A DNA stretch of 64,000 nt from NCBI GenBank assembly GCA_018302605.1, contig JAGVZN010000021.1, positions 14,157 to 78,156 of the forward strand, read 5' to 3'. This document shows positions 5,942 through 57,571 of this stretch, piece after piece. The notes under the pieces are model-generated. The model had not been told where the DNA came from. It saw nothing but the letters and a program-made list of their open reading frames with translations, and searched no databases. The translations under genes and the position numbers were made by a program. Positions within the stretch are counted from its first letter, which is position 1. Each line of letters opens with the position of its first letter. This stretch comes from Candidatus Woesearchaeota archaeon (lineage in GTDB: Archaea > Nanobdellota > Nanobdellia > Woesearchaeales > GW2011-AR9).

Positions 5942-6520
5942 TTGCGGCCCCATAATCGGCTGATGGCTATTAAGAGAGATGAAGTTTTACTGGAAGGGGA
6001 GCTCTTCCGTGGAATATTTCAGGGCTCTCTCAAAAATCAAAAAAGTTTTGAAAGCAGAGAAAGCATAACTCCTGGGGGAAACACCTACCATTATCCAGTT
6101 TATCATACCTTCGAATGGTGGGATGTTACAGGAATGATTGTAGAAAGAAAAACTGCGGAGCCATACCAAGTAGTGTTCTCTACTTGTAGATATGATAAAC
6201 AATACCTACAAAGTCGTGATCGGGATCTTCCAGATTTTGTTCCGGATTTTGTGGTAGAAAGTTTATACGCTGGAATCGTGGTTGTCAATGATGCTAATGT
6301 CAGGAGTCTGTTTGGTGGTCAGTTTAGCGAGAGGGTAGATGTTGAGTTAATAGATTATTCTGCCACGTATGACCTTCTCTTAGGAAGAACTGTGGAGAAG
6401 TTAAGGGACCGAGAGCGAGGTGTTTACAAATTAGCCCCGCCAGAACTCGTTCTTTCCGAACTCGTAAAATTAGGATATGCTCCCGGACCGGAAGGTCAAA
6501 TGGGGTTTAAATTTAGTTAG
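5942..6520 (+). CDS. hypothetical protein
   Basis: 192-aa ORF with no recognisable motif. Confidence 0.4.
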   Translation: MRPHNRLMAIKRDEVLLEGELFRGIFQGSLKNQKSFESRESITPGGNTYHYPVYHTFEWWDVTGMIVERKTAEPYQVVFSTCRYDKQYLQSRDRDLPDFVPDFVVESLYAGIVVVNDANVRSLFGGQFSERVDVELIDYSATYDLLLGRTVEKLRDRERGVYKLAPPELVLSELVKLGYAPGPEGQMGFKFS

Positions 6521-6636: not shown

Positions 6637-6839
6637 GCACCGGTGGTATAATGGCTAGTATCTCAGCCTTCCATATTGACCCGCAATGGTTGATAAAGGC
6701 GGACCGCCTTTATGATGAAAGCTGATGATCCGGGTTCGAACAGATGTCACGCCATCTGAAAGGCGAAGCGACTTCGTTTGTGCTCAGCCGCGATCACTCA
6801 AAAGATTGCTGTGCATCTCAGAAAGTCCCGGCCGGTGCA
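6637..6839 (+). tRNA. tRNA-Gly(TCC) with two introns (canonical 37/38, 46 nt; T-loop 59/60, 85 nt)
   Basis: Acceptor GCACCGG / CCGGTGC + A73; D-arm GTAT-AATGGCTA-GTAT; anticodon stem TCAGC / GCTGA with loop CTTCCA(A); T-arm CCGGG-TTCGAA[intron]T-CCCGG. Confidence 0.7.
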
Positions 6840-6859
6840 CTCATTTATATTTATAAAAA

Positions 6860-7222
6860 ATGGCTGAAGATCATTCCGTAGAGGAAATAGGATTAGACTA
6901 CTCGCCGCCGAGAGCTGACGTTATCGAGATGCGGGAATTGCAGAGAAAAAGCCAGCAGGGGCACGATAAGGGAGCGCAGTATGGTTGGCAGGAGATACTT
7001 GACCGTCTGGTAAAAGGAGCAAGATCGGAACTGGAAAGATTATTAGAAACACACCCGGAAGTAAATCATGTTGGTGTGCGTTTTCTTGAACAAACTGCCT
7101 ATCTTGCCAAAACAGAACAGGATCTTTATGCGGTGGTAGAAGCGATCAATCCATCTACGGATTATGCTCTGTTGGATTATGTTCTGGACCGAAAGACGAC
7201 AGTAATGTTCTTTGTTCACTAA
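6860..7222 (+). CDS. hypothetical protein
   Basis: 120-aa ORF directly downstream of tRNA-Gly. Confidence 0.4.
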   Translation: MAEDHSVEEIGLDYSPPRADVIEMRELQRKSQQGHDKGAQYGWQEILDRLVKGARSELERLLETHPEVNHVGVRFLEQTAYLAKTEQDLYAVVEAINPSTDYALLDYVLDRKTTVMFFVH

Positions 7223-8150
7223 TCATCTCGTTCGACCCCGAGAAAGAGGCGATTTATCTTCTGAATTTTTTTTCAATATGATTAAATTTATAAATACCAA
7301 ACTTATACTTCCCTCTATGCCAATCACCAATACAGACAGACCAAAAGTGAATGTAAGCGTAAATGAAGTTCGCAGACAAGAAGTTCGTCCAGAAAATTCT
7401 TTTCGTTTTGCCGAACCCGTTCAGCCGGAACAGAAAAGAGAAAACAGGTCTGAGGAACCCGAACGTCGGGCAGAAGCAAGAGAACCGCGCGCACCGCGGG
7501 AGATTCAGGTCAGCATCAGGCCTTGGAAAGTATTGAAATTATTCCTGATCCTGCTGGTGTTTTCCAGTGTTTTCTTTGCCGGGCGCTGGAGCGCTGACGG
7601 AACGGACATATTTAGTTTCTCTTCACCAGGACCGACGGCAGCAGCTGTTTCCGAAAAAGCTGTGGAAAAAGAAACAGTCCCGGCAGCAACAGTGAAATCA
7701 GCCGTAGACGAAGCAGCGCTTCCCGCAGAAGAGGGTAAAGTTGAAGCACCGGCGAGTGATGTTCCCGAGAAAGTGATCACCAAATACAGCAAAGTGGCCT
7801 TGGCCGTGACCGCTGTCAAAAAAGAATGGTATGACGGCTGGGGGAAAATCGTACAACTATCAGTCACGATCAAGAATAATGAAGAAGGAACAATCAAACC
7901 AGCGTATTTGGTGATGAATGTCGAAGGCTATGATGATTTTGATAAGCGTGTGCCTCTCCCCGGGAAAGCACAAGAGATTAAAGCGGGAGTAAAATTAGAG
8001 GAAAATGTCAATATCCCTAACGGCTTTGCCTATAATCCGGCAACAAAAGGGATCGGTGACATGGGCACTGTCCATATCATCACGCGGCTCTATGACGAAC
8101 GTGATGTCCTGATTACCACTTTTGGGACGGATTATGATTTACGGGGATAG
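7212..8150 (+). CDS. hypothetical membrane-anchored protein
   Basis: Arg/Glu-rich N-terminal region, one TM helix (LKLFLILLVFSSVFFAG), then an extracellular domain; start may be at the internal MIKFINT. Confidence 0.45.
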   Translation: MFTNHLVRPRERGDLSSEFFFNMIKFINTKLILPSMPITNTDRPKVNVSVNEVRRQEVRPENSFRFAEPVQPEQKRENRSEEPERRAEAREPRAPREIQVSIRPWKVLKLFLILLVFSSVFFAGRWSADGTDIFSFSSPGPTAAAVSEKAVEKETVPAATVKSAVDEAALPAEEGKVEAPASDVPEKVITKYSKVALAVTAVKKEWYDGWGKIVQLSVTIKNNEEGTIKPAYLVMNVEGYDDFDKRVPLPGKAQEIKAGVKLEENVNIPNGFAYNPATKGIGDMGTVHIITRLYDERDVLITTFGTDYDLRG

Positions 8151-8195
8151 ATTGGTTGTTTGATTTGTTGTTTCATCTTTTGGGGGATTAAGTAT

Positions 8196-8462
8196 TTAAT
8201 GAAGTTTAGTTCTTACTTCTCCACCAAGCTTTGTAAGCTTATAGAACCGTCCTTTCGTTTCTTTTGGATTAATGCAGACGGCCAATCCTTTCTTCACAAA
8301 CTCACGTAAGACATCAGAAACGCTGTTACGAGTAATCTTAGGATTATACTTAAGTGCCTCTTGGTAAATTTGTGCTGGGATTTTACTTCCATCCATGACT
8401 TTGATGATTACACGACGTTGAGAGCCACGAACAACCCAAGAAAGTAGTTCTATCTGTTTCAT
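8196..8462 (-). CDS. small winged-helix DNA-binding protein
   Basis: 88 aa; helix-turn-helix-like SVSDVLREFVKKGL followed by a wing (GRFYKLTKLG). Confidence 0.5.
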   Translation of the reverse strand: MKQIELLSWVVRGSQRRVIIKVMDGSKIPAQIYQEALKYNPKITRNSVSDVLREFVKKGLAVCINPKETKGRFYKLTKLGGEVRTKLH

Positions 8463-8569
8463 ACACCCAGAAATAGTGTGAATATATATCGGTTTTTCAC
8501 TTAATATACACCAAAATATTTAAAAAGAAAGAGATTATAATTATAAATTGGCAAATAAAGGGGATTAAC

Positions 8570-8851
8570 ATGAAAACAACAACATTAACGCTCGGTCTTG
8601 ATGATGAAGAACGTCCAAGAGGATATCGGAAAGAAGTAAAGCGAGAAGCTTCAGAAAAACCAATAGAAAAAGAAGCTGTTACCTTTGGAAGGATTTGTGG
8701 TATTGCGTCCGTGTTATCCGCATCTTATTTCCCCGGAGGAAGTTTCATAGTCGGGCTAACAGGATTAATCTATAGCAAACATGAGACCACCGCAAACATA
8801 CTGAACGTAATCGGTCTGATACTCGCTGTAGTAATGTTCGTATTCGGTTAG
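8570..8851 (+). CDS. small membrane protein
   Basis: 93 aa with two predicted TM segments at the C-terminus. Confidence 0.4.
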   Translation: MKTTTLTLGLDDEERPRGYRKEVKREASEKPIEKEAVTFGRICGIASVLSASYFPGGSFIVGLTGLIYSKHETTANILNVIGLILAVVMFVFG

Positions 8852-8879
8852 AATTACAACAGATTATGGGATTGATAAT

Positions 8880-9272
8880 ATGAAAGAACAATTAAAAAAG
8901 TTTTCACTGGAACATCCTGGAATAACGGTTTTAGTTATTTTCATCGTAGCTATAATCCTGATCGCTCTTTTAATGAATACGACCAGAACTAAATCGGCCA
9001 AAGAACCAACGATCTATGAATGTTGGAATAGGCAACTCGTAAGAGACCTTTCAAAATGTCCCGAGGAGCCGTCTCTACCAGAAAGCAAGAAAAAAGAGAT
9101 TTGTAACGATTTGATTGCCTATTTCCAATATTGTAACGATGCGGGCAATAGTCAGAATTCCTGCTCGACCACTGCACACGAGAAGATTTTACGCATCTAT
9201 AAAATCACAAACGAACAAATTATAGAGGTCGTGGATTACTGTACTAAAAACATGGAAAAGCTAGATATTTAG
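8880..9272 (+). CDS. membrane-anchored Cys-containing protein
   Basis: N-terminal TM helix (ITVLVIFIVAIILIALL) then a Cys-rich ectodomain. Confidence 0.45.
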   Translation: MKEQLKKFSLEHPGITVLVIFIVAIILIALLMNTTRTKSAKEPTIYECWNRQLVRDLSKCPEEPSLPESKKKEICNDLIAYFQYCNDAGNSQNSCSTTAHEKILRIYKITNEQIIEVVDYCTKNMEKLDI

Positions 9273-9315
9273 AACAGGTAATTATTTAAATGAATAAATA
9301 AGCCGGAGAGATAAG

Positions 9316-10599
9316 ATGATAAAAGAGGTGTTTGTATTAGGGATATTATTTCTTTTTCTCGTTGCCTGTGCACCTCAGGAAGCATTGGCGGGAAAAGCAT
9401 ATACAGATCTTTCTTACGAACAGAAACAACAGTATTGGGCGTGTATTAACGAATGCAACAAAATAGGTTACACGAGAGGTTGTGCACTGGATTGTATGGC
9501 TAAAGCTGAAAAATATGCCCCTGATCAGAACTGGTGTCAGGATCCAGATGGGAAAGATTATTTCACAAAAAACAGCGTAGCCTCTAATCTTTACCCTGTT
9601 CCTAAGGAAGATTCTTGTGTAACTATCGGTGGAAAGACATATCTCTTAGAAGGGATATGCTCTTCTAACAAATATGGTTGGATTCAGAAAAATTGTGCTG
9701 AACTCGGCAATTACAAATGCGTGGAGGGGGCATGTGTTGTTGCGAACCATCCTCCTGTCTTAGATCAGATAGAAGATCAAACGATTACTCTCGGGGAAAC
9801 TATTTCATTCACACTTACCGCTTCTGATCCCGATGGTGATAAACTGGTGTTTTCTGGCAAAATCCCGAAAGATTCTTCTCTTAACAAAGAAACGGGAGAG
9901 TTCAGCTGGAAGCCTACGGCTGCGGGTGAATATACGTTAATTTTCCGTGTGAACGATGGGAAATTATATGATAAGAAATACGTTGGAATTGTGGCGGTTA
10001 AACCAGTTAACAAAGAATGTATGTATGATGATTTCTCAGGAATCAGTTTAGACCTGAGTAAGTGGATTGAAGAAAAAAGGGAGGACGATCCTAGTTTTCC
10101 GGATATTCATGAAATCTCTTCAGAAAAAGGAACGTACCATATAGTAACGGTCACGAAAGGAGATAAGAGTGTTCAATTAATTACTATAAAAACTTTTGAT
10201 GTTGGCGAAGTTCTTGAGTTCGATTTAATATATAATGGTGGCGAGGGCAACCATATTGCTGGTTTTTCCGGGATCGTAATCGATGGGAAGAAAATTGAAC
10301 CGATTCAAAGCTATCTAAAGAATAATTGTCCTACTCCGAATCCGGGCTGTGGACGAGTGGGAGAATTCAATGGTATTCCCGATGTAGGAAGTGCTAAAGG
10401 GAAATATCATCTGAAGTTAGAATTCCTCGGGGATGGAATTAAATCAATAATAATTAGACCGGACGGATCAGTAATAGAACATGAATATACTGGACTGAAA
10501 GCACCACACCAGCCCATTTTCTTAGCTATGACGGGGGCTAATGGGCTAATGGATTTTGAATTTGACAATTTTGATATCCCTGGATGTTTAGAGAATTGA
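9316..10599 (+). CDS. secreted Cys-rich protein with cadherin-like / putative Ig repeat
   Basis: Signal peptide MIKEVFVLGILFLFLVACA; many Cys; PPVLDQIEDQTITLGETISFTLTASDPDGDKL resembles dystroglycan-type cadherin-like repeats. Confidence 0.55.
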   Translation: MIKEVFVLGILFLFLVACAPQEALAGKAYTDLSYEQKQQYWACINECNKIGYTRGCALDCMAKAEKYAPDQNWCQDPDGKDYFTKNSVASNLYPVPKEDSCVTIGGKTYLLEGICSSNKYGWIQKNCAELGNYKCVEGACVVANHPPVLDQIEDQTITLGETISFTLTASDPDGDKLVFSGKIPKDSSLNKETGEFSWKPTAAGEYTLIFRVNDGKLYDKKYVGIVAVKPVNKECMYDDFSGISLDLSKWIEEKREDDPSFPDIHEISSEKGTYHIVTVTKGDKSVQLITIKTFDVGEVLEFDLIYNGGEGNHIAGFSGIVIDGKKIEPIQSYLKNNCPTPNPGCGRVGEFNGIPDVGSAKGKYHLKLEFLGDGIKSIIIRPDGSVIEHEYTGLKAPHQPIFLAMTGANGLMDFEFDNFDIPGCLEN

Positions 10600-10842
10600 A
10601 TGGGCTAATGAGTTTCTATCATTTTTAATCTCCTGTATTAATCTGATTATCTCTTGATACATCTTTAACTGTTGTTCTTTCCATTCTTTTGCTTCTATTT
10701 TCTCTAGTGCTTCTATTGAAGAATTTAAACGCTCTTCAATGTTTTCAAATCCCATCCATTCTTTAACCCAAGCTTTTCTATTTTCGGGTGAACCGTCATT
10801 CCATTGTCGTAAATCCATAATTTTCATTTTAGTCACTCTCAA
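10588..10842 (-). CDS. hypothetical protein
   Basis: 84-aa ORF at the distal end of the integrase gene string. Confidence 0.35.
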   Translation of the reverse strand: MRVTKMKIMDLRQWNDGSPENRKAWVKEWMGFENIEERLNSSIEALEKIEAKEWKEQQLKMYQEIIRLIQEIKNDRNSLAHSIL

Positions 10843-10897
10843 TAATTAATTTCTCAGGACTATAATCTTATTTACTTGTGGTTTCTTGTTCATAAGA

Positions 10898-11200
10898 TCA
10901 ATCCCGTTGAAAAAATTTGACATGTGGAAAGAGGATATATACTCCTCCATATAGTAAAGCCACAACTAAAGCAGTATCATCTTTGAGGATAACTGGTGTG
11001 AACCCTATGGCTGCAAAGCCAATAAAGCCAACAGCATAAAGAACTGCATATAAACCTAGGACCAATTCAGAAGCGTCCTTAAAATTATTTAGAACGCGAT
11101 CTCGCTCCATCTTCTTCGTTTTTGTATAATCATTTAAGGAATTAAAAAACCAAACAACGATTGCTAATAAGAGTAAGGCAAAAGAATGATTTAATGTCAT
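10898..11200 (-). CDS. small membrane protein
   Basis: 100 aa with 3 predicted TM helices; start ATG overlaps the stop of the upstream peptide gene (ATGA). Confidence 0.45.
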   Translation of the reverse strand: MTLNHSFALLLLAIVVWFFNSLNDYTKTKKMERDRVLNNFKDASELVLGLYAVLYAVGFIGFAAIGFTPVILKDDTALVVALLYGGVYILFPHVKFFQRD

Positions 11201-11337
11201 TTTTTCTTCACAATAGTTACTGTTACAAAACCAATAACTCCTCCAATTATTGCTCCAATAGTTCCGCTAGTACTTCCGCCAATAAGAGCCCCAAGTGCTA
11301 GCCCAGCTAATTCTTCGTTACCTTTTTCTTTTGCCAT
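11197..11337 (-). CDS. 46-aa glycine-zipper membrane peptide
   Basis: MAKEKGNEELAGLALGALIGGSTSGTIGAIIGGVIGFVTVTIVKKK; not in the ORF track (under 60 aa); translationally coupled to the 10898-11200 gene. Confidence 0.4.
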   Translation of the reverse strand: MAKEKGNEELAGLALGALIGGSTSGTIGAIIGGVIGFVTVTIVKKK

Positions 11338-11387
11338 TTTTTATCAATCTAAATATAGATTCAATCGTTTAAATGTGTTATGAAGAA

Positions 11388-12710
11388 TTATTCACGTCTA
11401 AACTCTTTAAACTTCTCCCCAAATACCTGCAACCCCGATGTCGATAACATCGCTTGACTATTACCAAACTGAACCATTGTCGGCTGTGGCAAGCCCTGTG
11501 CTAACTGTTGTAATGCCTGTTCCATCTGAGTAACCCTTGATAATAACTCCCTTTCTCTCTCTTGTGCTCTTTCGTCTATTCGAATTCCTGCTTCTAATGT
11601 AAGCGGAGACTTACATCTATCACAAAAGATGAGGATACTTTGATTTTGAAAATTACACCGTGGACAAATGCGAGGTTTTAATACATCCTCTTTTTCAGTA
11701 GTTTTCGGTTTAATTCCCTCTACTTCACAGTAAGCATCATCGATGTCCTTATCGCTGAGCTGGAGATAAACGCCCTCTAATGTTCTCGTTGTAATGCCAT
11801 GCCTTTTGGCATTCTTGACCAAATCAAAGCCCCTCCTTTGAAGATCCGTAATCGCAAAGTATCTTCCCATATGCCAGAAGAGATTTTTCTTGATTTCTGC
11901 ACGTTCCGCAATTCTTCGAATAAAAGCAGTATAGCCAATGGGTGACAGTTTCCTTGCAAACCAGCCGCCTTGTTCTTTACCAACAAATAAGGGTGCATCT
12001 CCATTCTTCCTGTCGGGATGATCTTTGTTAATCCACTCGCGTAAATACGGTACAGCTCGAACTAACCGAACAGAGCGTCGCTGAGATTTTGATACTTCAA
12101 TCCACACTTTACAGCCCATTTCGTCAAATTCAACATCGCTAAGCTTAACATTTGCAATCTCGTTAGCTCTACAACCCATTTCCACCCAGACCATAATCAA
12201 TGCTCGATCTCGATTACAGGAACAAATAGTAAGCATTCGCTCGATATCCTCAATAGTTGGCAAATCTGATGGCTTATGAGTTCCTTTAATCCTCTCCGGC
12301 TTTAATCGTTCATCTTCTACAACTGCCGGAAAGCCAGAACGCTCTTTAAATTGGTACAACCACTTGTAAAAAGATCGAATTATCACTTTTTTCACAGAGC
12401 GTGAAGAATCTGTTCTCACGTTACCAACAAATTCAATGATTTTCTGCTTATAAGCCTCAATCTCGGTATCGATGGGTTTAAACGGCATCTTGAGGGATAA
12501 GCCAAGTTCTCGGAGGCACAAGAGGGTATTGCGAATGGTCGAGGTTTTTATCCTACCACCGCGACTACTTGGCTTGTTTTCCAAGTACTCTTTAAAGAGG
12601 TTAAGTGCTTCCAACTGTTCCACAGAGAGTTTACCCCTCCATTTCGAGTTATGATGACCTTCGTCGAAGCCATTGGTCAAAATCTTCCTAATTTCTTCTT
12701 CTGAACCCAT
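11388..12710 (-). CDS. tyrosine recombinase / integrase with C-terminal zinc ribbon
   Basis: Catalytic region HMGRYFAITDLQRRG-x18-Y; arm-binding and core-binding regions; C-terminal CPRC-x13-CDRC ribbon and a coiled coil not present in archaeal XerA. Confidence 0.8.
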   Translation of the reverse strand: MGSEEEIRKILTNGFDEGHHNSKWRGKLSVEQLEALNLFKEYLENKPSSRGGRIKTSTIRNTLLCLRELGLSLKMPFKPIDTEIEAYKQKIIEFVGNVRTDSSRSVKKVIIRSFYKWLYQFKERSGFPAVVEDERLKPERIKGTHKPSDLPTIEDIERMLTICSCNRDRALIMVWVEMGCRANEIANVKLSDVEFDEMGCKVWIEVSKSQRRSVRLVRAVPYLREWINKDHPDRKNGDAPLFVGKEQGGWFARKLSPIGYTAFIRRIAERAEIKKNLFWHMGRYFAITDLQRRGFDLVKNAKRHGITTRTLEGVYLQLSDKDIDDAYCEVEGIKPKTTEKEDVLKPRICPRCNFQNQSILIFCDRCKSPLTLEAGIRIDERAQERERELLSRVTQMEQALQQLAQGLPQPTMVQFGNSQAMLSTSGLQVFGEKFKEFRRE

Positions 12711-12812
12711 ACATTTTGCCTTATTCCGAGCTATTTAAACCCAATTACAATTTAATATTATTTACCATCCAAAACGTTTATAAACTAAAAACGTAACCTT
12801 CTCCTCTGTACA

Positions 12813-15800
12813 ATGACGAGAATCAATCGTATCTCCATCCAAGGATTCAAGAGCTTCGCCCACAAGACAGAAATACCCCTGGGAGAAGAATATAATTGCA
12901 TCCTCGGCCCGAATGGTTCCGGCAAGAGCAATATTGGCGATGCCCTTTGTTTTGTTCTGGGAAGACTTTCGGCAAAATCGATGCGTGCGGAAAAAGCATC
13001 CCATCTGATCTTCAATGGGGGAAAGAACAAAAAGCCGGCCGATGCCGGAACCGTTCAGATTGTGTTCTCCAATACGGAGAAGACATTCCCCCTTGATGAA
13101 AAAGAAGTCGTTGTCGAAAGGACGATCACTAAGAAGAGCAATAGCATCTATAAAGTCAACGGCAAAACAAAGACGAGAACGGAACTTCTGGATCTGCTTT
13201 CCCTGGCCAGGATCAATCCCGACGGCTATAATATCGTCCTGCAAGGAGATATCACCCGTTTTGTCACTATGCCAACGCTGGAGCGGCGTAAGGTTGTTGA
13301 GGAAATCAGCGATGTTTCAATTTATGAAGAGAAGAAACACAAAGCAATCTTAGAATTGAACAAAGTAGAAGAGAAATTGAATAGCGCCGAGATTATCCTC
13401 AAAGAGCGGGGCACGTATCTCAAAGAACTGAAAAAAGACCGCGATCAGGCCCTAAAATTCAAAGAACTCAAGAACAAGATCGATTCTCACCGGGCGACAT
13501 ATCTTCATCATCAGATCACTGAAAAAGAAGCGGAGAAATCCAGACTGGATGGTACGATCGGAGTACATCAGGAAACAGTCACCAAAGCAGAAGAACGGAT
13601 CAAAGGGCTGAAGGCAAGCATCGAAGAACAGCGACAGCGTACGGTGTCGATCAACAAAGAGATTGAACAGAAAGGAGAGACGGAACAGGTTCGTGTGCAT
13701 AAAGAGATTGAAGATCTGAAAGTGACGGTGGCCAAGGACCGGACACGCATCTCGACGCTGAAAGATGAGATCAACAAGATCGCTCAGAGAAAAGATCAGT
13801 TCCAGCAGGAATTGAAAGATCTGCAGCAGAAAAACAGCAGCGTTCAGCAGCAGCAGAAAGAGATGCAGGCGCTGGCCCAAAAAAAGAAAAAAGAATTACA
13901 GGAAGTAGAACAGAAAATTGCCGATTTCAAAAAGAAAAACAAGATCGAAACATCACAGGAGATCGATCAGGATATCGAACAGAAAGATACGCTGATCGAG
14001 CAAAAACAGGAAGACGTCCAGCAGATCCGCCAACGGCAGCAGGAATTACTGCGGGAAAAAGACCGGCTGGAATATCAAGTGCAGACGATCGATGAACAGA
14101 TCCGGAAAGTGAACGAAGTCGAGGATCAGAATAAAGATCAGGTCAAGAAGCTGCAAGGATTAAAAACAGATTTCAAAGCCGCAACATTACGATTAAATCA
14201 ATGTTTGGATCAGGATGCGGGATTTGCTTCACAATTAGCCAATGCGCGCAGGAAACTGAATGAACTGCAGGAACAACAGGCCAAATTGAATGCCAAAACC
14301 CTGGCGGCACAGGCAGGATTAGCGAATAACAAAGCGTTACAGAGCATTGTCGCCAATAAAAATAAATTGGGCGGCATCTACGGTACTGTTGCCGAACTAG
14401 GGCAGGTTTCAAAGAAATATGCAGAAGCGCTGGAAGCCGCGGCAGGCAGCCGAATGCAAAATCTGATTGTCGATACTGACAAAACTGCCGCTGACTGCAT
14501 CAATTTTCTGAAAGCTCATAAATTAGGTTCAGCTTCATTTATCCCGCTCAACAAGATCCGCACCCTAGAAATGAAGACTGAAGACAAACAGCTGCTCAAA
14601 AGCAAAGGCGTCCATGATTTTGCGCTGAACTTGGTGTCATTTAAACCGCAATTCCAGAAAGCTTTTTCCTACGTCTTTGGCAATACGCTAGTCGTCGATG
14701 ACATCGATACGGCGCGCAGCGTCGGTATCGGCCGGGCAAGGATGACGACATTAGACGGCAATATCGCTGAAGCCAGCGGCGTGATGCACGGCGGCTTCAC
14801 AGCCCGTCGCAGCTCTTTGGGATTTAAAGAAAAAGATTCCCTGGCAGAATTAGAGAATGCAGAGAAAGATCTTGCCTCGACCGAAAGTGTCCTGGCAGCT
14901 ATTTTGACCAGACGTGAAGGGAACGAACAAGAGATCACTTCCCTGAGGACAAAGAAAGCAGAGATGGAAGCAGAGATCATCACGCTGGAAAAAACATTGC
15001 ATCTAAAGACGGGAGATCTGGATGCATCGGCTAACCTGAAGAAAGAGATCAAAGAGCGGCTGGAAACAGTCAATAAAGAGCTCGCTTCCATGCAAAAAGA
15101 GATCACGACAGTGAACAAAGACCTGGCGGCGTTGAAGACCGAGAAACAGCAGCTGCGTGACCAGGTCAGTGAATTGCGTAACCCGCGCCTTCTGGCGCAA
15201 TTAAGTGCCTTTGATGAAGCGCGCCAACAATACCGTGAGGAACTGCTCCGCTTGGACAGCGACTTGAAGAATACGGCATTGCACACGGAACAGCTGCTCG
15301 GGCCAGAACAGCTGAAGATTAAAGAGATTATCAAACAACACGATAAAGAAGAAACCACATTTCTGGAAGAGATCAAGACACTTACGGCGAAGGCAGAAAA
15401 ACTAGAGCAGGAATTAAAAGTAAAAGAAAAAGCAAGCAAGGAGTTCTATGCTAAATATCATCAGTTATTTGCCGAACGTGAGAAGATCAGTATGGAGATC
15501 AGTAAGATGGAACAGGGAATGGAGATGGTTCGAGAGAAAAGCCGCGCCAGTGAACGGGAAGTAAATCTGGTTTCGCTAAAAAACGCTGAGATCAAAGCCA
15601 AGCTGGCCGGACTACACGAAGAATTTTCACGCTATCGAGACGCACCCATCCTTACAAACATTCCCGTCCAAGACATCCAGAAAGAGATCAGCAAGTTTGA
15701 GGTGATGCTCGCCCAGATGTCTGCCGTGAACATGAAAGCATTGGAAGTCTATGAACAGATTGAGAAAGAATTCAGCGCGCTGATCCAGAAGAAAGAAGAA

Positions 15801-16304
15801 TTGAGCAAAGAGAAAATAGATGTCATGACGATGATGAATGAGATTGAGACCAAGAAAAAAGATCATTTCATGAAAACATTCCACAAAGTGAATGAGCATT
15901 TCCAAAACGTCTTTGGGAACCTGTTCACCAAAGGAAAAGCCTATCTGCAGCTGGAGAATCCCGACCAGCCGTTTGAGGATGGCATCAGCATCCAGGTCAA
16001 GATCAGCGGCAACCGCTTTATGGACCTCAAGTCCCTCTCCGGCGGAGAAAAGACGCTGACGGCGCTGGCTTTTATCTTTGCCCTGCAGGAATTCCAGCCG
16101 GCGACATTTTATATCCTGGACGAAATCGATGCCGCTTTAGACAAGCAGAATTCCGAGAAACTAGCCAAATTGATAAAATCCTATTCCGACCGCGCGCAGT
16201 ACGTCGTCATTTCGCATAACGATTCCCTCATCGCGGAAGCAGATACGCTCTTCGGTGTGAGCATGGTCGACGGCGTGAGCAAGATCACGAGCATTACGAT
16301 CTAA
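12813..16304 (+). CDS. smc: chromosome segregation protein SMC
   Basis: 1163 aa; Walker A GPNGSGKSN; long coiled coils; hinge; C-terminal LSGGEKTLTALAFIFAL and DEIDAALD. Confidence 0.95.
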   Translation: MTRINRISIQGFKSFAHKTEIPLGEEYNCILGPNGSGKSNIGDALCFVLGRLSAKSMRAEKASHLIFNGGKNKKPADAGTVQIVFSNTEKTFPLDEKEVVVERTITKKSNSIYKVNGKTKTRTELLDLLSLARINPDGYNIVLQGDITRFVTMPTLERRKVVEEISDVSIYEEKKHKAILELNKVEEKLNSAEIILKERGTYLKELKKDRDQALKFKELKNKIDSHRATYLHHQITEKEAEKSRLDGTIGVHQETVTKAEERIKGLKASIEEQRQRTVSINKEIEQKGETEQVRVHKEIEDLKVTVAKDRTRISTLKDEINKIAQRKDQFQQELKDLQQKNSSVQQQQKEMQALAQKKKKELQEVEQKIADFKKKNKIETSQEIDQDIEQKDTLIEQKQEDVQQIRQRQQELLREKDRLEYQVQTIDEQIRKVNEVEDQNKDQVKKLQGLKTDFKAATLRLNQCLDQDAGFASQLANARRKLNELQEQQAKLNAKTLAAQAGLANNKALQSIVANKNKLGGIYGTVAELGQVSKKYAEALEAAAGSRMQNLIVDTDKTAADCINFLKAHKLGSASFIPLNKIRTLEMKTEDKQLLKSKGVHDFALNLVSFKPQFQKAFSYVFGNTLVVDDIDTARSVGIGRARMTTLDGNIAEASGVMHGGFTARRSSLGFKEKDSLAELENAEKDLASTESVLAAILTRREGNEQEITSLRTKKAEMEAEIITLEKTLHLKTGDLDASANLKKEIKERLETVNKELASMQKEITTVNKDLAALKTEKQQLRDQVSELRNPRLLAQLSAFDEARQQYREELLRLDSDLKNTALHTEQLLGPEQLKIKEIIKQHDKEETTFLEEIKTLTAKAEKLEQELKVKEKASKEFYAKYHQLFAEREKISMEISKMEQGMEMVREKSRASEREVNLVSLKNAEIKAKLAGLHEEFSRYRDAPILTNIPVQDIQKEISKFEVMLAQMSAVNMKALEVYEQIEKEFSALIQKKEELSKEKIDVMTMMNEIETKKKDHFMKTFHKVNEHFQNVFGNLFTKGKAYLQLENPDQPFEDGISIQVKISGNRFMDLKSLSGGEKTLTALAFIFALQEFQPATFYILDEIDAALDKQNSEKLAKLIKSYSDRAQYVVISHNDSLIAEADTLFGVSMVDGVSKITSITI

Positions 16305-16331
16305 GCGGTGTGGATTCATCGGGTGTGAATA

Positions 16332-16748
16332 ATGGTTACAAAGAGAGGAAAAAAGCACGTTTCGAGAGAGAAGAAACTGACAAAGAAACCAGCAAAGAAA
16401 GCGGGAGCAAGCGGAAAGAAAAACTACGATCTATCACGTCTTGGCTCGCGCGACCTGCTTTCCGAGCCAGTTCGGCCGATCCAGATCCATGCCCTTCCGG
16501 GACGGATGAAAGTGAACAGTCTGGCGTTAGGCTATGCGTTGGGAGCAGTCCGGGTTGCTGTCCTGCTTGTAGTTTCTGTATTTGGATTTTTTGGATATGC
16601 AGAAGGGGCTGTCTCTCTTGTGGAATCACTCCATTTTACATTCTCGTTATCAGTATTCGGAATCTTGGCTGGGCTTGTCGAAACTATGCTCTGGGGATTC
16701 CTGATGGGCTTGCTGCTGGGCTGGACCTATAATCTTTTCTCCCGCTAA
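16332..16748 (+). CDS. membrane protein with Lys-rich N-terminus
   Basis: 138 aa; basic N-terminal tail then 3 TM helices. Confidence 0.45.
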   Translation: MVTKRGKKHVSREKKLTKKPAKKAGASGKKNYDLSRLGSRDLLSEPVRPIQIHALPGRMKVNSLALGYALGAVRVAVLLVVSVFGFFGYAEGAVSLVESLHFTFSLSVFGILAGLVETMLWGFLMGLLLGWTYNLFSR

Positions 16749-16749
16749 G

Positions 16750-17382
16750 ATGGTTCTGATCTTTGATTATGATGTTAGACAGGCGTTGAAAGATATTCAG
16801 ATTGTTGAACAGAAAGAGTTTGTCATCTCTGAACAACAACGCGAGAGCATGATCGAAGTATATGGCAAAGCCAAGTGGGCAGTCGTCGATATGTTGAATG
16901 AGCGATATTCTGCCCAGCAGGAAACACCTTTCGATCTCCACCACTGGCTTTCCGGAAATGAAGAAGATGAGGTGGCCTATTTTCTCAACGAAGCCGGCTC
17001 GAATGCCTTGAATTATGCAGAAGCGGGTGCGCCAGCAGCATTCCATCTCTGGCTGGGAAAGAAAGGATTTGTCATCGGCATCGAACAGCAAGGTGCGGGC
17101 TTTGATGCCAGACGTGTTCATCAGCTGCGGATTGCTCAGCATCAAGGCGGCGGATTTGATTTCTTCCGGAAATGCCAAGGGATCGTATTTTTTGACAAGA
17201 AAGAGAAAGCGAAAGTAATATATTTCCTGGGGAGAATCCAAAAGCATGATCGATCTTTTCAAGCTGATCGGAGCATTAGGGATTATGCTGATCTCCATTG
17301 GGATCGTCACCAAAAAGAGAAAGATACAGGATGTTTATTATATTCTGGTATTTGTTTAGCTTTTCTGGCTGGCCGTGAGTGA
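16750..17382 (+). CDS. GHKL-type ATPase domain protein (anti-sigma-factor / histidine-kinase-like ATPase)
   Basis: N-box NEAGSNALNYAEAG; G-boxes GFVIGIEQQGAGFD; last about 12 codons overlap a family-2 element. Confidence 0.5.
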   Translation: MVLIFDYDVRQALKDIQIVEQKEFVISEQQRESMIEVYGKAKWAVVDMLNERYSAQQETPFDLHHWLSGNEEDEVAYFLNEAGSNALNYAEAGAPAAFHLWLGKKGFVIGIEQQGAGFDARRVHQLRIAQHQGGGFDFFRKCQGIVFFDKKEKAKVIYFLGRIQKHDRSFQADRSIRDYADLHWDRHQKEKDTGCLLYSGICLAFLAGRE

Positions 17383-17511
17383 GAGCGGAAAATTGGTCGT
17401 GTTCTCCGCTTCAAGACAAGTCGTGGCTTGAACATTTTCCGCACAATAATCTTTAGCATAAAGCTCTTGTCTCACTCACATCTTGGCCCAGCCACCAGCT
17501 AAACAAATACC
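17347..17511. mobile_element. MITE-like element, repeat family 2, copy A (165 bp)
   Basis: TIR ggtatttgtttagc / gctaaacaaatacc; long internal imperfect hairpin (gtgagtgagagc / gctcttgtctcactcac). Confidence 0.6.
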
Positions 17512-17695
17512 ATTTCTGGAGGGGGGTCTGTTTAGAAATTTATAGTATTCGCATCGGTGATCTTATCTTCATCATCCTGCAGGTGATTTTTACGGCGGCG
17601 GCGGTCTACGATTTGGTTAAAGTTAAGATAAAAGCTGGTTCTTGACCAATTTCTTACCGAATATTTTATAACATTCAGCCCATAATTAACCGGCA

Positions 17696-18724
17696 ATGAA
17701 CTACATCATCAAACATCTCCCCGAAGATTTCATCGTCAAAGAGATCAGTCGCATCACTCCGCAGAAACAAGGCAGATACTGCTATGTCCTCCTGCGCAAA
17801 AGACAGCGGAATACGCTGGATGTGGTGCAGGAGATAGCCAGACAATTACACACTAAAGAAAAACAGATCGGCTTTGCTGGAAGCAAAGATCGGCAGGGAA
17901 TAACGGAACAGGTGATTTCCCTGGCTGGAACGGGAAAAGACAAGATCGCTGCGCTGAACCTGCGTAATGCCGAATGTGTCATCCTCGGCTATGGGAATAC
18001 GCCAATTACTTTGGGTGATCTGCAGGGAAATGCTTTTGAGATCGTCGTCCGTGATCTTCAAGAAGACATGGAGAAAGAGAATTTGGGCTTTTCCCCGTTT
18101 CTGGAAAACTATTTTGATGAACAGCGCTTTTCAACGCAGAATGTAGCGGTGGGGAAAGCCTTGATCCAAAAAGATTTTGCCGGAGCGGTACGATTGATCT
18201 CCAACACGGTCGGCCTTGCCCATCTCGACGACCATCCTGCTGATTTTGTCGGGGCATTGAAAAAAGTTCCTAGCCGCTTATTGCGGATGTACGTTCATGC
18301 GTTGCAAAGTGCGTTATGGAATCGGACGGCTGCTGCCTATTTGCAGCGGAAAGGCATACTGGAAAAGAGTATTGATTATTCGCAGGGAAAATTAGTGTTC
18401 GTGAAAGATACGCAAAGACTTTTGGGGATAAACATTCCGTTGGTTGGCTTTGGTGAACTGCCAACGGACGATGATGAAATCAAAGAGATTATCACCAGAT
18501 TATTGACTGAAGAAAAAATAGAGCAAAATAATTTTGTGATCAAACAAATTCCGGAATTGACTGTTGAAGGAGAGCTGCGTCAGTTGATCGTGCCAATAGG
18601 GAATATTGAAATCGGCAGCATCGAAGACGACGAAATATTTTTCGGGAAGAAAAAAATGAAAGTCTGCTTCACTTTGCCTAAGGGCAGTTACGCGACGATG
18701 GTTGTCAAGAAGTGGTTTGGGTAA
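17696..18724 (+). CDS. truD: tRNA pseudouridine synthase TruD/Pus7
   Basis: 342 aa; catalytic GSKDRQGIT (G-x-KD) motif typical of the TruD family. Confidence 0.65.
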   Translation: MNYIIKHLPEDFIVKEISRITPQKQGRYCYVLLRKRQRNTLDVVQEIARQLHTKEKQIGFAGSKDRQGITEQVISLAGTGKDKIAALNLRNAECVILGYGNTPITLGDLQGNAFEIVVRDLQEDMEKENLGFSPFLENYFDEQRFSTQNVAVGKALIQKDFAGAVRLISNTVGLAHLDDHPADFVGALKKVPSRLLRMYVHALQSALWNRTAAAYLQRKGILEKSIDYSQGKLVFVKDTQRLLGINIPLVGFGELPTDDDEIKEIITRLLTEEKIEQNNFVIKQIPELTVEGELRQLIVPIGNIEIGSIEDDEIFFGKKKMKVCFTLPKGSYATMVVKKWFG

Positions 18725-20581: not shown

Positions 20582-20691
20582 TGAGCCTGCCCGGATTCGA
20601 ACCGGGGTCCTATGGTCACTTCTGCCGAAGCAGCCGAAGCCATATGTCCTATTTGCCTTATTTGCTCCTATCCAGGCTAGACTACAGGCCC
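20582..20691 (-). tRNA. tRNA-Arg(TCG) with two introns (D-arm about 19 nt; canonical 17 nt UUCG hairpin)
   Basis: Minus strand GGGCCTG-TA-GTCT-AGCCTGGATA[intron]GGAC-A-TATGG-CTTCGG[CTGCTTCGGCAGAAGTG]A-CCATA-GGAC-CCCGG-TTCGAAT-CCGGG-CAGGCTC-A; A20 and G37 fit Arg / CGN decoding. Confidence 0.6.
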
Positions 20692-24980: not shown

Positions 24981-25325
24981 ATGGGATCCGGAAAGACCTG
25001 GGGTTATCTCGTTGGGGTGTTTTCTGCCGCAATAGTTGGTTATTATGCCGGCCAATGGGTTCATACTCCCCAATGGGCATGGACTGCAGATGAGAATGGT
25101 GATGGACTCGAGGATATCGTCTTCGAATCCAGAGATGGAAAAACGTCGGTTCTGTATAAAGTTTCTCCCCCCGATGCAGGATACCAAAAATTTCTCTCCG
25201 GAGAAAAAGCAAGCGCGTATTTTAACGAGCGATTATCGGAGGAGAACAGAAAAGATGCACCCTCTCTTAGAGATTTATCTAGCGGGAGATGGAATCTCGA
25301 AACAAAGTGGAGGGAAAGCAATTAA
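24981..25325 (+). CDS. hypothetical membrane-anchored protein
   Basis: N-terminal TM helix (WGYLVGVFSAAIVGYYAG); competes with the overlapping ORF 25036-25497. Confidence 0.35.
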   Translation: MGSGKTWGYLVGVFSAAIVGYYAGQWVHTPQWAWTADENGDGLEDIVFESRDGKTSVLYKVSPPDAGYQKFLSGEKASAYFNERLSEENRKDAPSLRDLSSGRWNLETKWRESN

Positions 25326-25603
25326 TCTCTTCCTTCTGAACTCCAATCTCGCAATCTTTTGGCGTATCTTTCGTAGTCTATTGCCAGAGAAGGGCTATCT
25401 CTTATCTCTTCTTTGGACATACTCCCTCCGTATACAAAGAATCTTTTTTCATCTCTCTCTAACCCGTTTTCTTGACGTCTCCAGCGGACTGTTCTAAAGA
25501 AAATAGTCCCCGCATCATTCTCATAATACTCCCTATCTTTATGCATCTGTGACTTTTGATCAAAACCAAGATACGTCTGGGAAATCTTACGTAATTCTTC
25601 CAT
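25322..25603 (-). CDS. hypothetical protein
   Basis: 93-aa charged ORF. Confidence 0.35.
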   Translation of the reverse strand: MEELRKISQTYLGFDQKSQMHKDREYYENDAGTIFFRTVRWRRQENGLERDEKRFFVYGGSMSKEEIRDSPSLAIDYERYAKRLRDWSSEGRD

Positions 25604-25946
25604 TGGAGTTAGATTTTAGCAATCTTTTAAAAGTGTTTTGGAAAGAAAAACCACGCGTATGTATTTTGTTGTTGGCCAAGTGAGAGATAGCATTCGTCAG
25701 ACGAGGCTGGTGGGTTTTCCTGCGGAAGAATATTATAACGTTTTTTAGGCCCCCTCATTTTCTCATTAAGTAATTCCGAAATTTCATTTAACGTATGGAA
25801 TTCCTGTTAAATCCTGCCGACTACGAAGTGGGAGGTACGAGGAGCGTAGCGACGAAGAGTTTTTTGTTGTCGTACATAGAAACACTGATACAGTTTTAGC
25901 ATGTAGTTAAAGAATAGACGGAGGTGGGTCTTGAGTAGGTTATTTG

Positions 25947-26633
25947 TTAAAAGGTCGCCGTTTTCCATAGAATGTCAAAGAAACTCCTATAAGAATCTGC
26001 TACTTGTTTGCTTCTCATTAGAAAAGCTATGGGATCAGATGACCAGTTGATAATAGCAACTTTATCATGAGATAATTTTAATTCTTCTTCTCTTTTTTGC
26101 TTTCTAACAGTCTCATTAAAGATTATTTTTAGTGGGATTTTTGATTCTATTCTTCTGTCATGAAAATGGATAAAGTAAGCGTGAAATAACTCTTTAAATT
26201 TTCCAGTTGCTCCAAAAACAAACCAAGGCTTTCCCTCTTTTAAAATATCTTCAAAGATAGATTTGAGCCCTTTCTTACTTTTGTAGAGAGTTCCCTCCTG
26301 TTCTTCTTTTGAGAGCTTTCTTTTTAATTGAAGTTCTGGAAGAAATTGTTTTAGTTTTTCTTCTTTATCTATTAGATCTTGTTTCTTAGATTCAAGATAT
26401 TCTAGCAATCTGTCCGGATCTTGAGCCTCAAAATACTTTCTGTTAGCTTTAATAACGTAAGAAACAAGACCTTTGCCTATTAGCAAATCAATAATATCAT
26501 AAACTGCTGCCCGATGCATTCCTACTTTTTTGATTAAAGGGCCAGCAGCAGTGCTTCCTAATTCCAACAGGGCTAAGTAAACTTTTATTTCGTTTTTGGT
26601 AAGTCCTAATTCTTCCAATAAGGCAGTGTCCAT
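25947..26633 (-). CDS. TrmB-family transcriptional regulator
   Basis: N-terminal LGLTKNEIKVYLALLELGSTAAGPLIKKVGMHRAAVYDIIDLLIGKGLV winged HTH typical of TrmB. Confidence 0.7.
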   Translation of the reverse strand: MDTALLEELGLTKNEIKVYLALLELGSTAAGPLIKKVGMHRAAVYDIIDLLIGKGLVSYVIKANRKYFEAQDPDRLLEYLESKKQDLIDKEEKLKQFLPELQLKRKLSKEEQEGTLYKSKKGLKSIFEDILKEGKPWFVFGATGKFKELFHAYFIHFHDRRIESKIPLKIIFNETVRKQKREEELKLSHDKVAIINWSSDPIAFLMRSKQVADSYRSFFDILWKTATF

Positions 26634-26733
26634 TCCCTATTAAAAACACCCGTTCTTTTTATAGTTTTCGTTTTTGTCATAAGTTTTACTTATTACATTA
26701 ATTTAAATACAACCAATCGGTTTCTATCCTCCA

Positions 26734-27210
26734 GTGATTAAAATGGAAAATCAAAAAAGACCAACCGGTTCAGTGTTAACTGCTTATATCTCTGATTGTG
26801 TAAGAAGTACTTATAATCAAATTAATAGGGGTTATGAAGCTGGAAGAACCATCGCGTTCAATACAAGAAGACTAAAAGAACGAGAAGGCTCAAATTCTTG
26901 TCTAAAATACTCTCATGCATTATTGAGAGAAGTGGAGAGAATTACATACGATACGAAAGCAGTAAATCTTGGTTTCCAGTTATACAGATTTCTAAATCAC
27001 TTTGATTGTAAGATAATTGATAGAAATGTAAACTCAGCAGAAGAATACATTAAAAATAATCCTGATCCTGAAATTAAAGTTGGAAGCAAAGGTGGAATAG
27101 AATGTATAATCACATTAGCACAAGATGCAGCAGATGAAGTTAATAGAAACTCTGAAATTGGTGGAAGACCTAAAGTTCAAATGAAATCTTTTCCAGATTG
27201 GAGGTACTGA
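26734..27210 (+). CDS. hypothetical protein (AT-rich islet gene 1)
   Basis: 158 aa; no recognisable motif. Confidence 0.45.
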   Translation: MIKMENQKRPTGSVLTAYISDCVRSTYNQINRGYEAGRTIAFNTRRLKEREGSNSCLKYSHALLREVERITYDTKAVNLGFQLYRFLNHFDCKIIDRNVNSAEEYIKNNPDPEIKVGSKGGIECIITLAQDAADEVNRNSEIGGRPKVQMKSFPDWRY

Positions 27211-27755
27211 TTAAGATGAAAATTATTAGCCCCGGAATGAGAGAAGGACTTGTGTACCAAAGAACAACAGTTTGGACGGCATCTCATACACTTGCTATGA
27301 GAAAGGAAGCTTACCGCTTACTAAAAGATATTGAGCATTGCCCAATAAACGAGTGGGTAGAATCGCATGATTGGAGTTGGGTTACTGATCCAGAACAAAA
27401 AGCTAGGGCTATTCAATCTGAAATAAACTGGAGGGAACATATGCCAGAAGAACTTGAAAGTTATCGTTGTCATTATAGTTGGATAGTCGCCTACCAAGAT
27501 CCTGATGAGGAACCGCATGAGTGGCGATATGGGAAAATTTATCCATATATCAAAGAAGAAAATTTAGAAGTCGCAATAGATAAAGCTGCTGCTGTTTTCT
27601 CCCAAGATGCAGTAATAAGATCTATAGAAAAAACGAGATTTGGGCAGGAAGCCAGTGATAGGCTTAGGGAGTACCCTGTTCCAGATGGTGTCTTGCAATA
27701 TATTAGAAATGAGTTTCCAAAAAGAAGGCAAAAATTGATTTTGGAGATTGATTAA
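27198..27755 (+). CDS. hypothetical protein (AT-rich islet gene 2)
   Basis: 185 aa; overlaps gene 1 by 13 nt; Trp/His-rich. Confidence 0.45.
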   Translation: MEVLIKMKIISPGMREGLVYQRTTVWTASHTLAMRKEAYRLLKDIEHCPINEWVESHDWSWVTDPEQKARAIQSEINWREHMPEELESYRCHYSWIVAYQDPDEEPHEWRYGKIYPYIKEENLEVAIDKAAAVFSQDAVIRSIEKTRFGQEASDRLREYPVPDGVLQYIRNEFPKRRQKLILEID

Positions 27756-27841
27756 TATGGGAAGACATGATACTAATACTGACGGATTTGGAATGGGAAG
27801 CCAAAAATTGGAAGAACTTACGGATAATTTAATGGAAATTC

Positions 27842-28528
27842 TTGGTAGAGCGAGATATTCGCAAAAATATCGCCCCTTTCAAGAATCAAGAAGATAGGCT
27901 GAGCACTACTTATGGTAGAGAGCTTCTCTCTTGGTTAAGGGGATTGTTTCAATGGACGCCCTTTGGCATAAGTTATATTCACGAGAATGAGACGGGCGTG
28001 AGTGTTCCTGTTGAATTCAAAGATGGTAAAATAAACAAGACAACATTATATGCTACAGCGGGAGTTTATGCTTTGGAACATGATCCACAACTTTCAATTA
28101 CTACAACAGAGATAGCTATTGTCGCCTCTTTTGAAGATTGTATAAAAGTATATTCTAGAGTGGCCACATCAGGAGGAAAAGGAGAAATAGATATTGAGTG
28201 GTATGAAGAGGTTGCAACCGGACCTGAAGGGGTCGCAAAAGGAGATTATACCTCTTTTGAGAAAAAACGCGGAAGAATAGACAGAAATTGGGATGATATT
28301 GGACTAAGGATTCAGCAAAGATGTGGGAACTTTCTAGGCAAAGCATATAGCGGCCGACCTATTTTCTATGAATATATAGTTGGTGATGATTTCGGTACAG
28401 GTAGAATCGTGAAAGAGCTGAGTGGTACTGGATTTCCAAGCTATATCGGGGGGGATCAAATCCAGGAATTTTATGCCCAATTAGACCTGAGGACTGAGTT
28501 GATTGACGTTAAAGGCGACCACCATTAG
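27842..28528 (+). CDS. hypothetical protein (AT-rich islet gene 3), non-ATG start
   Basis: 228 aa; opens on TTG at 27842 with no in-frame ATG near the 5' end; a 47-aa ATG ORF (27757-27900) overlaps in another frame. Confidence 0.4.
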   Translation: MVERDIRKNIAPFKNQEDRLSTTYGRELLSWLRGLFQWTPFGISYIHENETGVSVPVEFKDGKINKTTLYATAGVYALEHDPQLSITTTEIAIVASFEDCIKVYSRVATSGGKGEIDIEWYEEVATGPEGVAKGDYTSFEKKRGRIDRNWDDIGLRIQQRCGNFLGKAYSGRPIFYEYIVGDDFGTGRIVKELSGTGFPSYIGGDQIQEFYAQLDLRTELIDVKGDHH

Positions 28529-28761
28529 TTTTTAGTGATAGAAAAAAAGCCCCACCCCGTCGATAATTAATTCTTTACATTTTAGTTTTACTTGTTATTG
28601 TAGAAGAGTAGGTGTCAGTGTTTAAAATTGTTAGTATTTCCGTTAAGGAATGATACATAATAGATGACAAAAATTTCACTGAACTGATATTACTTACTAC
28701 CGCTATTATAAATAGGTACGAAACCCATCTATTTCCAGTATGGTTTAAAAAAGCTAAACTT

Positions 28762-28772
28762 TTATAAAAAGG
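28762..28772 (+). promoter_or_regulatory. TATA box ttttataaaaa upstream of the tRNA-Ser region
   Basis: Sits about 25 nt upstream of the duplicated 5' tRNA fragment at 28797, not of the intact tRNA. Confidence 0.35.
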
Positions 28773-28855
28773 ATAACAAATAACTCGTCTAATGCCCAGC
28801 GTCGCATACGCAGAAAGTAGATTTTCTGGTTGCGCCGCAGGCTCTGCTTCGCTAC

Positions 28856-57564: not shown

Positions 57565-57571
57565 AAAATGA

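Follow-up and report, generated by a model that had tools for sequence, protein, structure and literature searches.

What is an AT-rich islet, ending in a gene for a tyrosine recombinase with a zinc-ribbon tail, doing directly upstream of the core gene smc? The locus lies in a stretch of 64,000 nucleotides (nt) from Candidatus Woesearchaeota archaeon, a member of the DPANN archaea (assembly GCA_018302605.1, contig JAGVZN010000021.1, positions 14,157-78,156), which was analysed as a whole and is referred to here as the window. An earlier reading of the letters without database searches (the sequence-only reading) had proposed the remnant of an integrated plasmid or provirus, and had pointed to a nearby tRNA-Gly gene as a possible attachment (att) site. 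By comparing the locus with those of related genomes we reach a similar view of its nature and a different view of its target: the segment from 8191 to about 12776 (4.6 kb) is very probably what remains, after truncation, of a small plasmid- or virus-like integrative element residing at the smc promoter. Unoccupied sites in relatives, a distinct base composition, failure of the recombinase to qualify under the XerA model, and its membership in a family borne on mobile elements all support the proposal of a remnant.

The islet is an insertion upstream of smc

A scan for relatives of the SMC protein yielded 56 loci, which were searched with the proteins of the window; 45 of them include at least 1.5 kb of sequence upstream of smc. 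In the closest relative, L010 (SMC 93% identical in amino acid (aa) and 89% in nt sequence), the genes p120, p312 and smc follow one another in that order, with a 159-bp spacer and no island. Homologues of p312, the host gene that borders the islet on its left in the window, are found directly beside smc in L010 (89% aa identity) and likewise in L011 (SMC 81% aa identical), L033 and L048, the four spacers measuring 85-286 bp. The islet is an insertion between p312 and smc, and close relatives retain the same locus in its empty state. The possibility that the recombinase is a conserved neighbour of smc throughout the lineage, named in the sequence-only reading as the outcome that would undo its proposal, is not borne out, as a homologue of this integrase occurs at none of the 45 loci.

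The islet is also set apart by composition. G+C content is 38% in 8191-12776 compared with 45% in the rest of the window, the minimum among segments of equal length; taken between the two flanking host genes (8151-12812), the values are 38.3% and 44.7%, no sliding window of that length is lower, and the tetranucleotide distance from the window average falls in the top 0.8%. The profile is host-like until 8.1 kb, and over 8.0-12.0 kb it drops from about 0.45 to 0.355-0.40. The composition scan that had been suggested thus distinguishes the islet significantly from its surroundings and bears out its description as AT-rich. The winged-helix regulator, small membrane proteins, 427-aa protein and 440-aa recombinase that had been read from the sequence are all present where they had been placed, as is smc directly beyond the integrase gene, its start (12813) lying 102 bp past that gene on the opposite strand. 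The features of the locus, including open reading frames (ORFs), are as follows.

6637-6839, + strand: tRNA-Gly(UCC) with two introns, host context; exons 6637-6673, 6720-6740 and 6826-6839.
7317-8150, + strand: host flanking gene p312, the left host boundary; 277 aa in sister-contig gene calls (the listed ORF, 7212-8150, has 312 aa).
8151-8190, no strand: residual host spacer, ending in GGGGGATTAA; collinear with L010 up to the left deletion breakpoint at 8190/8191.
8196-8462, - strand: winged-helix regulator, 88 aa; weak winged helix-turn-helix matches, 84% aa identity to L001 14337-14600.
8570-8851, + strand: predicted membrane protein p93, 93 aa, cargo; ORF with a homologue in the L001 element (52% aa identity).
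8880-9272, + strand: 130-aa protein with an N-terminal transmembrane segment and a Cys-rich tail, cargo; ORF, no family match in Pfam, NCBIfam or PHROGs.
9316-10599, + strand: 427-aa predicted secreted protein or lipoprotein; He_PIG/Big_9 immunoglobulin (Ig)-like domain, homologue in the L001 element (60% aa identity).
10588-10842, - strand: small protein of 79-84 aa, cargo; ORF, 76-79 aa in sister-contig calls.
10898-11200, - strand: predicted membrane protein, 100 aa; ORF, no family match.
11197-11337, - strand: glycine-zipper membrane peptide, 46 aa; ORF, also called on sister contigs.
11388-12710, - strand: tyrosine integrase, 440 aa; Pfam Phage_integrase, 4.7e-13.
12732-12765, no strand: 34-nt non-coding block TATTTAAACCCAATTACAATTTAATATTATTTAC, shared with the L001 element at 100% identity.
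12777-12785, no strand: attR core TTTATAAAC, the predicted TATA box of the smc promoter; aligned with the L010 and L011 empty sites and with attL and attR of L001.
12813-16304, + strand: core gene smc of the host, bounding the element on its right; ORF with 56 orthologous loci.

A fuller copy in a relative indicates the attachment site

One related genome, L001 (GCA_053533895.1; SMC 79% aa identical to that of the window; locus of 21 kb), carries a homologous island at the same smc site, again with the integrase gene divergent from smc. The two islands share the integrase (86% aa identity), the regulator (84%), the He_PIG protein (60%) and a p93 homologue (52%). The L001 element is larger, at about 8.1 kb, and the additional 3.5 kb or so (14601-18076), located beyond the regulator and absent from the window, encodes a DUF5677 protein, a 334-aa AAA_25/DnaB-like helicase (Pfam 2.4e-28; replicative helicase/primase families in PHROGs) and small ORFs.

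Alignment of the empty sites with the two ends of the L001 element gives the site at base level. The attB sequence is CAAACACAACG-TTTATAAAC-TAAAAACGTAACCTTCT in L010 and GAAACACAACG-TTTATAAAG-AAAAAATGTAACCTTCT in L011. In L001 the far end reads AAAACACAACT-TTTATAAAC-AATATTTTTAATGG (element side), with TTTATAAACAA as the core region, and the integrase end reads (element) CAATCCAATAAA-TTTATAAAC-AAAAAATATAACCTTCT or, expressed through the repeat, element + TTTATAAACAA + AAAATATAACCTTCT. Both ends share the 11-nt direct repeat TTTATAAACAA, and joining them recreates the empty site, AAACACAACG-TTTATAAAC-TAAAAACGTAACCTTCT; the corresponding attP, composed from the same ends, would consist of the 34-nt block followed by ATCCAATAAA + TTTATAAACAA + TATTTTTAATGG. 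The 19-mer of the empty site occurs once in the L001 locus of 21 kb, exactly at the far end and with a single mismatch; chance would give 0.01 occurrences. Core repeats that, together with host arms, rebuild attB are thus seen in L001, and the window has attR only. The attachment core, as assigned from L001, is the predicted TATA box of the smc promoter, which replaces the tRNA-Gly gene as the target.

In many relatives among the Woesearchaeota (L010-L065) the smc start is preceded, at a distance of 30-50 nt, by a TATA box of the form TTTATAAA(C) with an A-rich stretch after it. Because this motif is conserved upstream of smc, the attachment core is present in many potential hosts.

Several observations weigh against the reading of the islet as an integrated element with this attachment site. 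A second patch of the window, at about 24.7-29.4 kb, is equally extreme in composition, and low G+C content is therefore indecisive when taken alone. The 11-nt repeat is by itself weakly significant, being reached in 15 of 300 shuffles. Scans for direct and inverted repeats around the island revealed no flanking attL or direct repeat in the window, so that the assignment of the site draws on one relative, L001. No circular or excised form of this element was encountered, either among nine contigs with an identical integrase or in IMG/VR, and no capsid or other hallmark decides between a virus and a plasmid as its parent. Finally, presence in two of four related genomes fits one old insertion followed by two losses, and the genes for the He_PIG protein and p93 are as diverged at four-fold degenerate sites (identities of 0.32 and 0.30 between the window and L001) as are host genes.

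History of the insertion

The last two points bear on when the site was occupied. Were the island ancestral to the four related genomes, it would have been lost twice, in L010 and L011, with no independent acquisition in the lineages of the window and L001. Such a history would explain why both carriers have the island at the same site and why two cargo genes have diverged as far as the host genes; moreover, the SMC distances do not resolve a three-way split among these genomes. Other parts of the island do not follow this pattern. The integrase and regulator (86% and 84% aa identity between the window and L001) stand against 50-79% for neighbouring host proteins, and at four-fold sites they retain identities of 0.45 (n=136) and 0.57 (n=30), compared with 0.33 for smc and 0.24-0.38 for other host genes. 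Neither has diverged as far as any of the host genes, and this favours an event later than the divergence of the hosts, either separate acquisitions or exchange of an integrase-regulator module. The 34-nt block, 100% identical in the two islands, also speaks against an ancestral island, as do L010 and L011, which keep an intact attB free of any scar (a state that precise excision would equally leave). The element has a G+C content of 36-38% in hosts of 39% and 45%. We regard an ancestral island as unlikely, while giving it appreciable weight. The divergence of the genes for the He_PIG protein and p93, which equals that of host genes, makes the element either a mosaic or partly old. This alternative concerns history only; the island is, under either account, an integrated mobile element.

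The window copy is truncated

At the integrase side the junction in the window reads ...TTTACCATCCAAAACG-TTTATAAAC-TAAAAACGTAACC and has the same structure as in L001. From the core onward the window is identical to L010. The junction of element and host on this side lies within about 12772-12785. The adjacent 34-nt block (12732-12765) is fully identical to that of L001 even though the neighbouring integrase genes are 80% identical in nt sequence, and exact matches to it were confined to the populations of the window and of L001. Such conservation suggests that the block may combine the integrase promoter with an arm site bound by the integrase.

The left side is of a different kind. Beyond GGGGGATTAA, at 8190, the window is no longer collinear with L010 and runs into the regulator gene from its 3' end (stop codon at 8196-8198); some 65 bp of the spacer seen in L010 are missing, the AAACACAACG arm among them. 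Neither a second copy of the core (attL) nor the helicase module occurs anywhere in the 64 kb. No replication or morphogenesis module of its own was detected in the window copy with Pfam, NCBIfam or PHROGs, in contrast to the DnaB-like helicase of the L001 copy. The simplest reading is a single deletion that took in part of the host spacer, attL and the adjoining portion of the element. Left with a single att site and lacking a replication module, this copy is probably unable to move.

The opposite view, that the island is an intact provirus or integrative plasmid still able to excise from the chromosome, can appeal to an uninterrupted integrase with all of its catalytic residues, to the conserved regulator and control region, and to the occurrence of an identical integrase protein on nine contigs from several samples. 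All nine contigs, however, have the same integrated arrangement and none is a circle; attL and the host-left arm have no counterpart in the window, the replication helicase module of L001 is missing, and about 65 bp of the host spacer are gone along with them. An intact, excisable island is accordingly quite improbable.

A zinc-ribbon-tailed integrase of mobile elements

The integrase comprises an N-terminal core-binding domain, a catalytic domain, a disordered linker (residues 318-344), a zinc ribbon and a helix (372-405). It matches the tyrosine recombinase superfamily (Pfam PF00589) at 49.7 bits, the cutoff being 27.1. Among 12 homologues of 37-86% identity, R181, K208, H280, R283 and Y315 show no variation and H304 hardly any, and all are intact in the window; by their positions in the alignment, these six would be the catalytic residues. 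The ribbon (CPRC...CDRC, residues 349-366) has a weak match to Pfam DZR, and its cysteines C349, C352, C363 and C366 are invariant in the same 12 sequences; the tail noted from the sequence alone is therefore real, and a predicted long helix follows it. An AlphaFold2 (AF2) model, with a mean predicted local distance difference test (pLDDT) score of 78, shows the recombinase fold followed by the disordered linker, the ribbon and the long helix. Its nearest folds in a Foldseek search are those of XerA, XerH and Cre (probability 1.00).

Could this recombinase then be the lineage's chromosomal Xer, an XerA-type dimer resolvase placed beside smc among AT-rich genes that are ordinary variable host genes? 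Among solved structures and NCBIfam models alike, XerA is the nearest match, and the gene adjoins smc in two genomes. The match to the NCBIfam equivalog model of XerA (NF040815) is, however, 66 bits, far under its cutoff of 220. XerA chains align to residues of about 140-333 only and lack the 120-aa zinc-ribbon tail, and no such gene stands beside smc in the sister genome or at any of the 45 testable loci. Homologues reside instead on a circular episome and on tRNA-flanked islands. These results uphold the earlier distinction of the recombinase from housekeeping XerA and leave a chromosomal role very improbable.

The reading of the gene as an integrase of a mobile family is extended by its wider relatives. 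An exhaustive profile search with the integrase family, at E <= 1e-30, retrieved the representatives of 1,950 clusters. Among the best 158 family members examined, 144 carry the motif CxxC...C(xx)C at the C-terminus, and the arrangement of recombinase, linker, ribbon and helix is correspondingly common, being seen in no fewer than 144 clusters (50% identity). No description of a zinc-ribbon-tailed archaeal integrase was found in the searchable literature, and a scan of IMG/VR with the family alignment returned very distant matches only (23-26% identity). One homologue, P0008, is encoded on a 10,600-bp circle together with an MCM helicase; the circle is supported by 100% identical rotations, 30-nt terminal overlaps and at least six sequencing runs. 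Homologues P0007 and P0005 adjoin D5/DUF5906 primase-helicase modules. The element bearing P0003, an integrase 53% identical to ours, encodes an OLD-family nuclease (AAA_15/AAA_21 + TOPRIM; L116 3709-5424), which is a defence-type cargo; P0003 and the window integrase are each followed by a 46-aa gene, and these two genes are not homologous to each other. More distant members of the family directly abut tRNA genes, and in L103 and L093 copies of tRNA 3' ends, 20-22 nt in length, recur 7-8 kb away. Relatives of the integrase are thus known on circular, D5-helicase-linked and tRNA-flanked elements.

Some of these elements were delimited further. The P0008 episome (L066-L071, Logan contigs of 10,630 bp each) encodes the MCM helicase (1029 aa), a GIY-YIG nuclease and an AAA_22-like protein. 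The L103 island (9636-17662) is bounded by repeats of the tRNA-Arg 3' end and carries Schlafen/AlbA_2, ORF6N and PQQ beta-propeller genes, and that of L093 (6565-13710) is bounded by direct repeats of the tRNA-Gln 3' end. In L007 an imperfect 18-nt direct repeat (6151-6168 and 13385-13402) surrounds a 7.2-kb block of integrase and DUF5906-helicase genes; these repeats may be att sites, although they are AT-rich and could have arisen by chance.

We offer, as a speculative and rather unlikely proposal, that the ribbon-tailed integrases may constitute a large, undescribed family of integrases from archaeal mobile elements, largely associated with DPANN. The C-terminal ribbon and helix would serve as an accessory module for DNA binding or multimerisation, replacing the N-terminal arm-binding domain, and one sublineage would have exchanged tRNA genes for the TATA box of a promoter as its target, its integration rewiring the sequence upstream of the essential smc gene.

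tRNA genes and other low-G+C stretches of the window

The tRNA-Gly gene at 6637-6839 was spotted by eye as tRNA halves and its introns, one of 46 nt at position 37/38 and the other of 85 nt within the T-loop, were spliced out by hand; ARAGORN called the resulting 72-nt sequence tRNA-Gly(UCC). Both ARAGORN in its default mode, which reported no tRNA in the window, and Rfam, which reported one only (28856-28968), miss it. The gene is real and lies upstream of the islet, as had been claimed, and only its proposed role as attachment site fails. An element inserted in this tRNA gene and spanning about 6840-12770 is the least credible of the alternatives: the gene is just 1.36 kb from the islet and many integrases of the wider family target tRNA genes, but the suggested search found no fragment of it repeated near the island end at 12.7 kb, the two genes between tRNA and island are host genes in the same order in island-free L010, G+C content is host-like up to 8.1 kb, and relatives with no island likewise keep a tRNA-Gly gene upstream of smc.

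With introns allowed, ARAGORN additionally called tRNA-Arg(UCG) at 20582-20691 (- strand) and a doubtful "tRNA-Stop(UUA)" at 36824-36978 (- strand); Rfam reported neither at its gathering threshold. The second AT-rich patch, at about 25300-28970 (G+C 0.33-0.40), ends at an intron-bearing tRNA-Ser(UGA) gene (28856-28969). Its coding content is a TrmB-family regulator (25947-26633, - strand) plus several orphan ORFs, with no integrase; the patch may be another island. A third, milder stretch of low G+C content (0.38-0.40) occupies 57000-60000.

Regulator and cargo

The winged-helix regulator adjoins a divergent control region (8463-8569), and the 84% nt identity to L001 extends through this intergenic region, an arrangement that looks like a maintenance switch. 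The 427-aa protein has an N-terminal hydrophobic leader with a lipobox-like LVAC sequence, a Cys-rich N-domain, an Ig-like domain (Pfam He_PIG 1.3e-08, Big_9 3.6e-07) and a beta-rich C-domain. Homologue searches found one full-length relative, that of the L001 element, all others matching in the Ig domain only, and the AF2 model (pLDDT 54) is confident for residues 145-228, the Ig-like domain, only. For these reasons the label of "host-interaction" cargo is a guess. Searches of Pfam, NCBIfam and PHROGs with the cargo returned nothing beyond the Ig-like domain and the weak winged-helix match.

As to the parent of the element, PHROGs and Pfam gave no structural match for capsid or packaging hallmarks in the window or in the L001 element, a result that divergent archaeal virion proteins could escape, and the integrase family has no close relatives in IMG/VR. 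A pleolipovirus-like provirus, suggested by the combination of a spike-like secreted protein, membrane proteins and an NTPase, was considered and no supporting evidence was found.

Comparison with known integrative systems

The elements most like this one are those with pNOB8-type (non-splitting) integrases, including the integrated mobile genetic elements (iMGEs) of Thaumarchaeota (PMC6563490), which also have an intact integrase gene at the edge beside att, a short direct-repeat core, and a small size (about 8 kb) with a replicative helicase and orphan genes. Intergenic integration accounts for 15 of 68 thaumarchaeal iMGEs (PMC6563490). Ours differs in its DPANN host, a woesearchaeote; in its target, the predicted TATA box of the smc promoter and not a tRNA gene; in the C-terminal zinc ribbon and helix of the integrase; and in the loss of one att site and the replication module from the window copy. 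With XerA (PDB 4a8e, 5hxy; NF040815), its best match in both sequence and structure, the integrase shares the catalytic fold and the residues R-K-H-R-H-Y; it is distinguished by a score far under the model cutoff, a longer N-domain, the 120-aa C-terminal extension, a position that is not conserved and a family borne on mobile elements. The SNJ2-type integrases of haloarchaeal pleolipovirus proviruses, a few of whose att sites are intergenic (PMC5861418), are likewise an archaeal-specific tyrosine integrase family on small temperate elements, compared here through the Phage_integrase domain only. A zinc ribbon is unmentioned in PMC5861418, and SNJ2 requires the accessory Orf2/3, counterparts of which were not identified in the window element. 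In SSV-type integrases attP lies inside the integrase gene, which is split on integration; the window ORF, in contrast, is intact (440 aa) in the integrated state, with att outside.

A model of integration and decay

The mechanism is, we infer, classical site-specific integration by a tyrosine recombinase, presumably catalysed by the integrase of the element itself. The enzyme would recombine the core TTTATAAAC(AA) on a circular form of the element with the identical sequence in the TATA box of the smc promoter. The element would thereby land between the upstream host gene and smc, regenerating a TATA box for smc and leaving the integrase gene at its own edge, as in the tRNA-targeting relatives. 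A later deletion would have taken away some 65 bp of host spacer, attL and the replication module, whose DnaB/RepA-like helicase and neighbours L001 has kept. The surviving part would consist of the integrase and its promoter/arm block, the winged-helix regulator together with the divergent control region beside it, and a group of genes for secreted and membrane proteins; having one att site only, this copy would probably be fixed in place.

Significance

As a decayed integrative element of an archaeon the islet is nothing unusual in kind; its mildly novel aspects are an att site at a TATA box and the ribbon-tailed family of its integrase. Integrated elements of DPANN archaea are poorly charted, and for one in Woesearchaeota an att site can now be given at base level, with the occupied, empty and decayed states of a single site documented in related genomes. 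The islet is not part of the core genome, and its secreted Ig-domain protein is to be read not as a proven factor in host interaction but as cargo of a mobile element.

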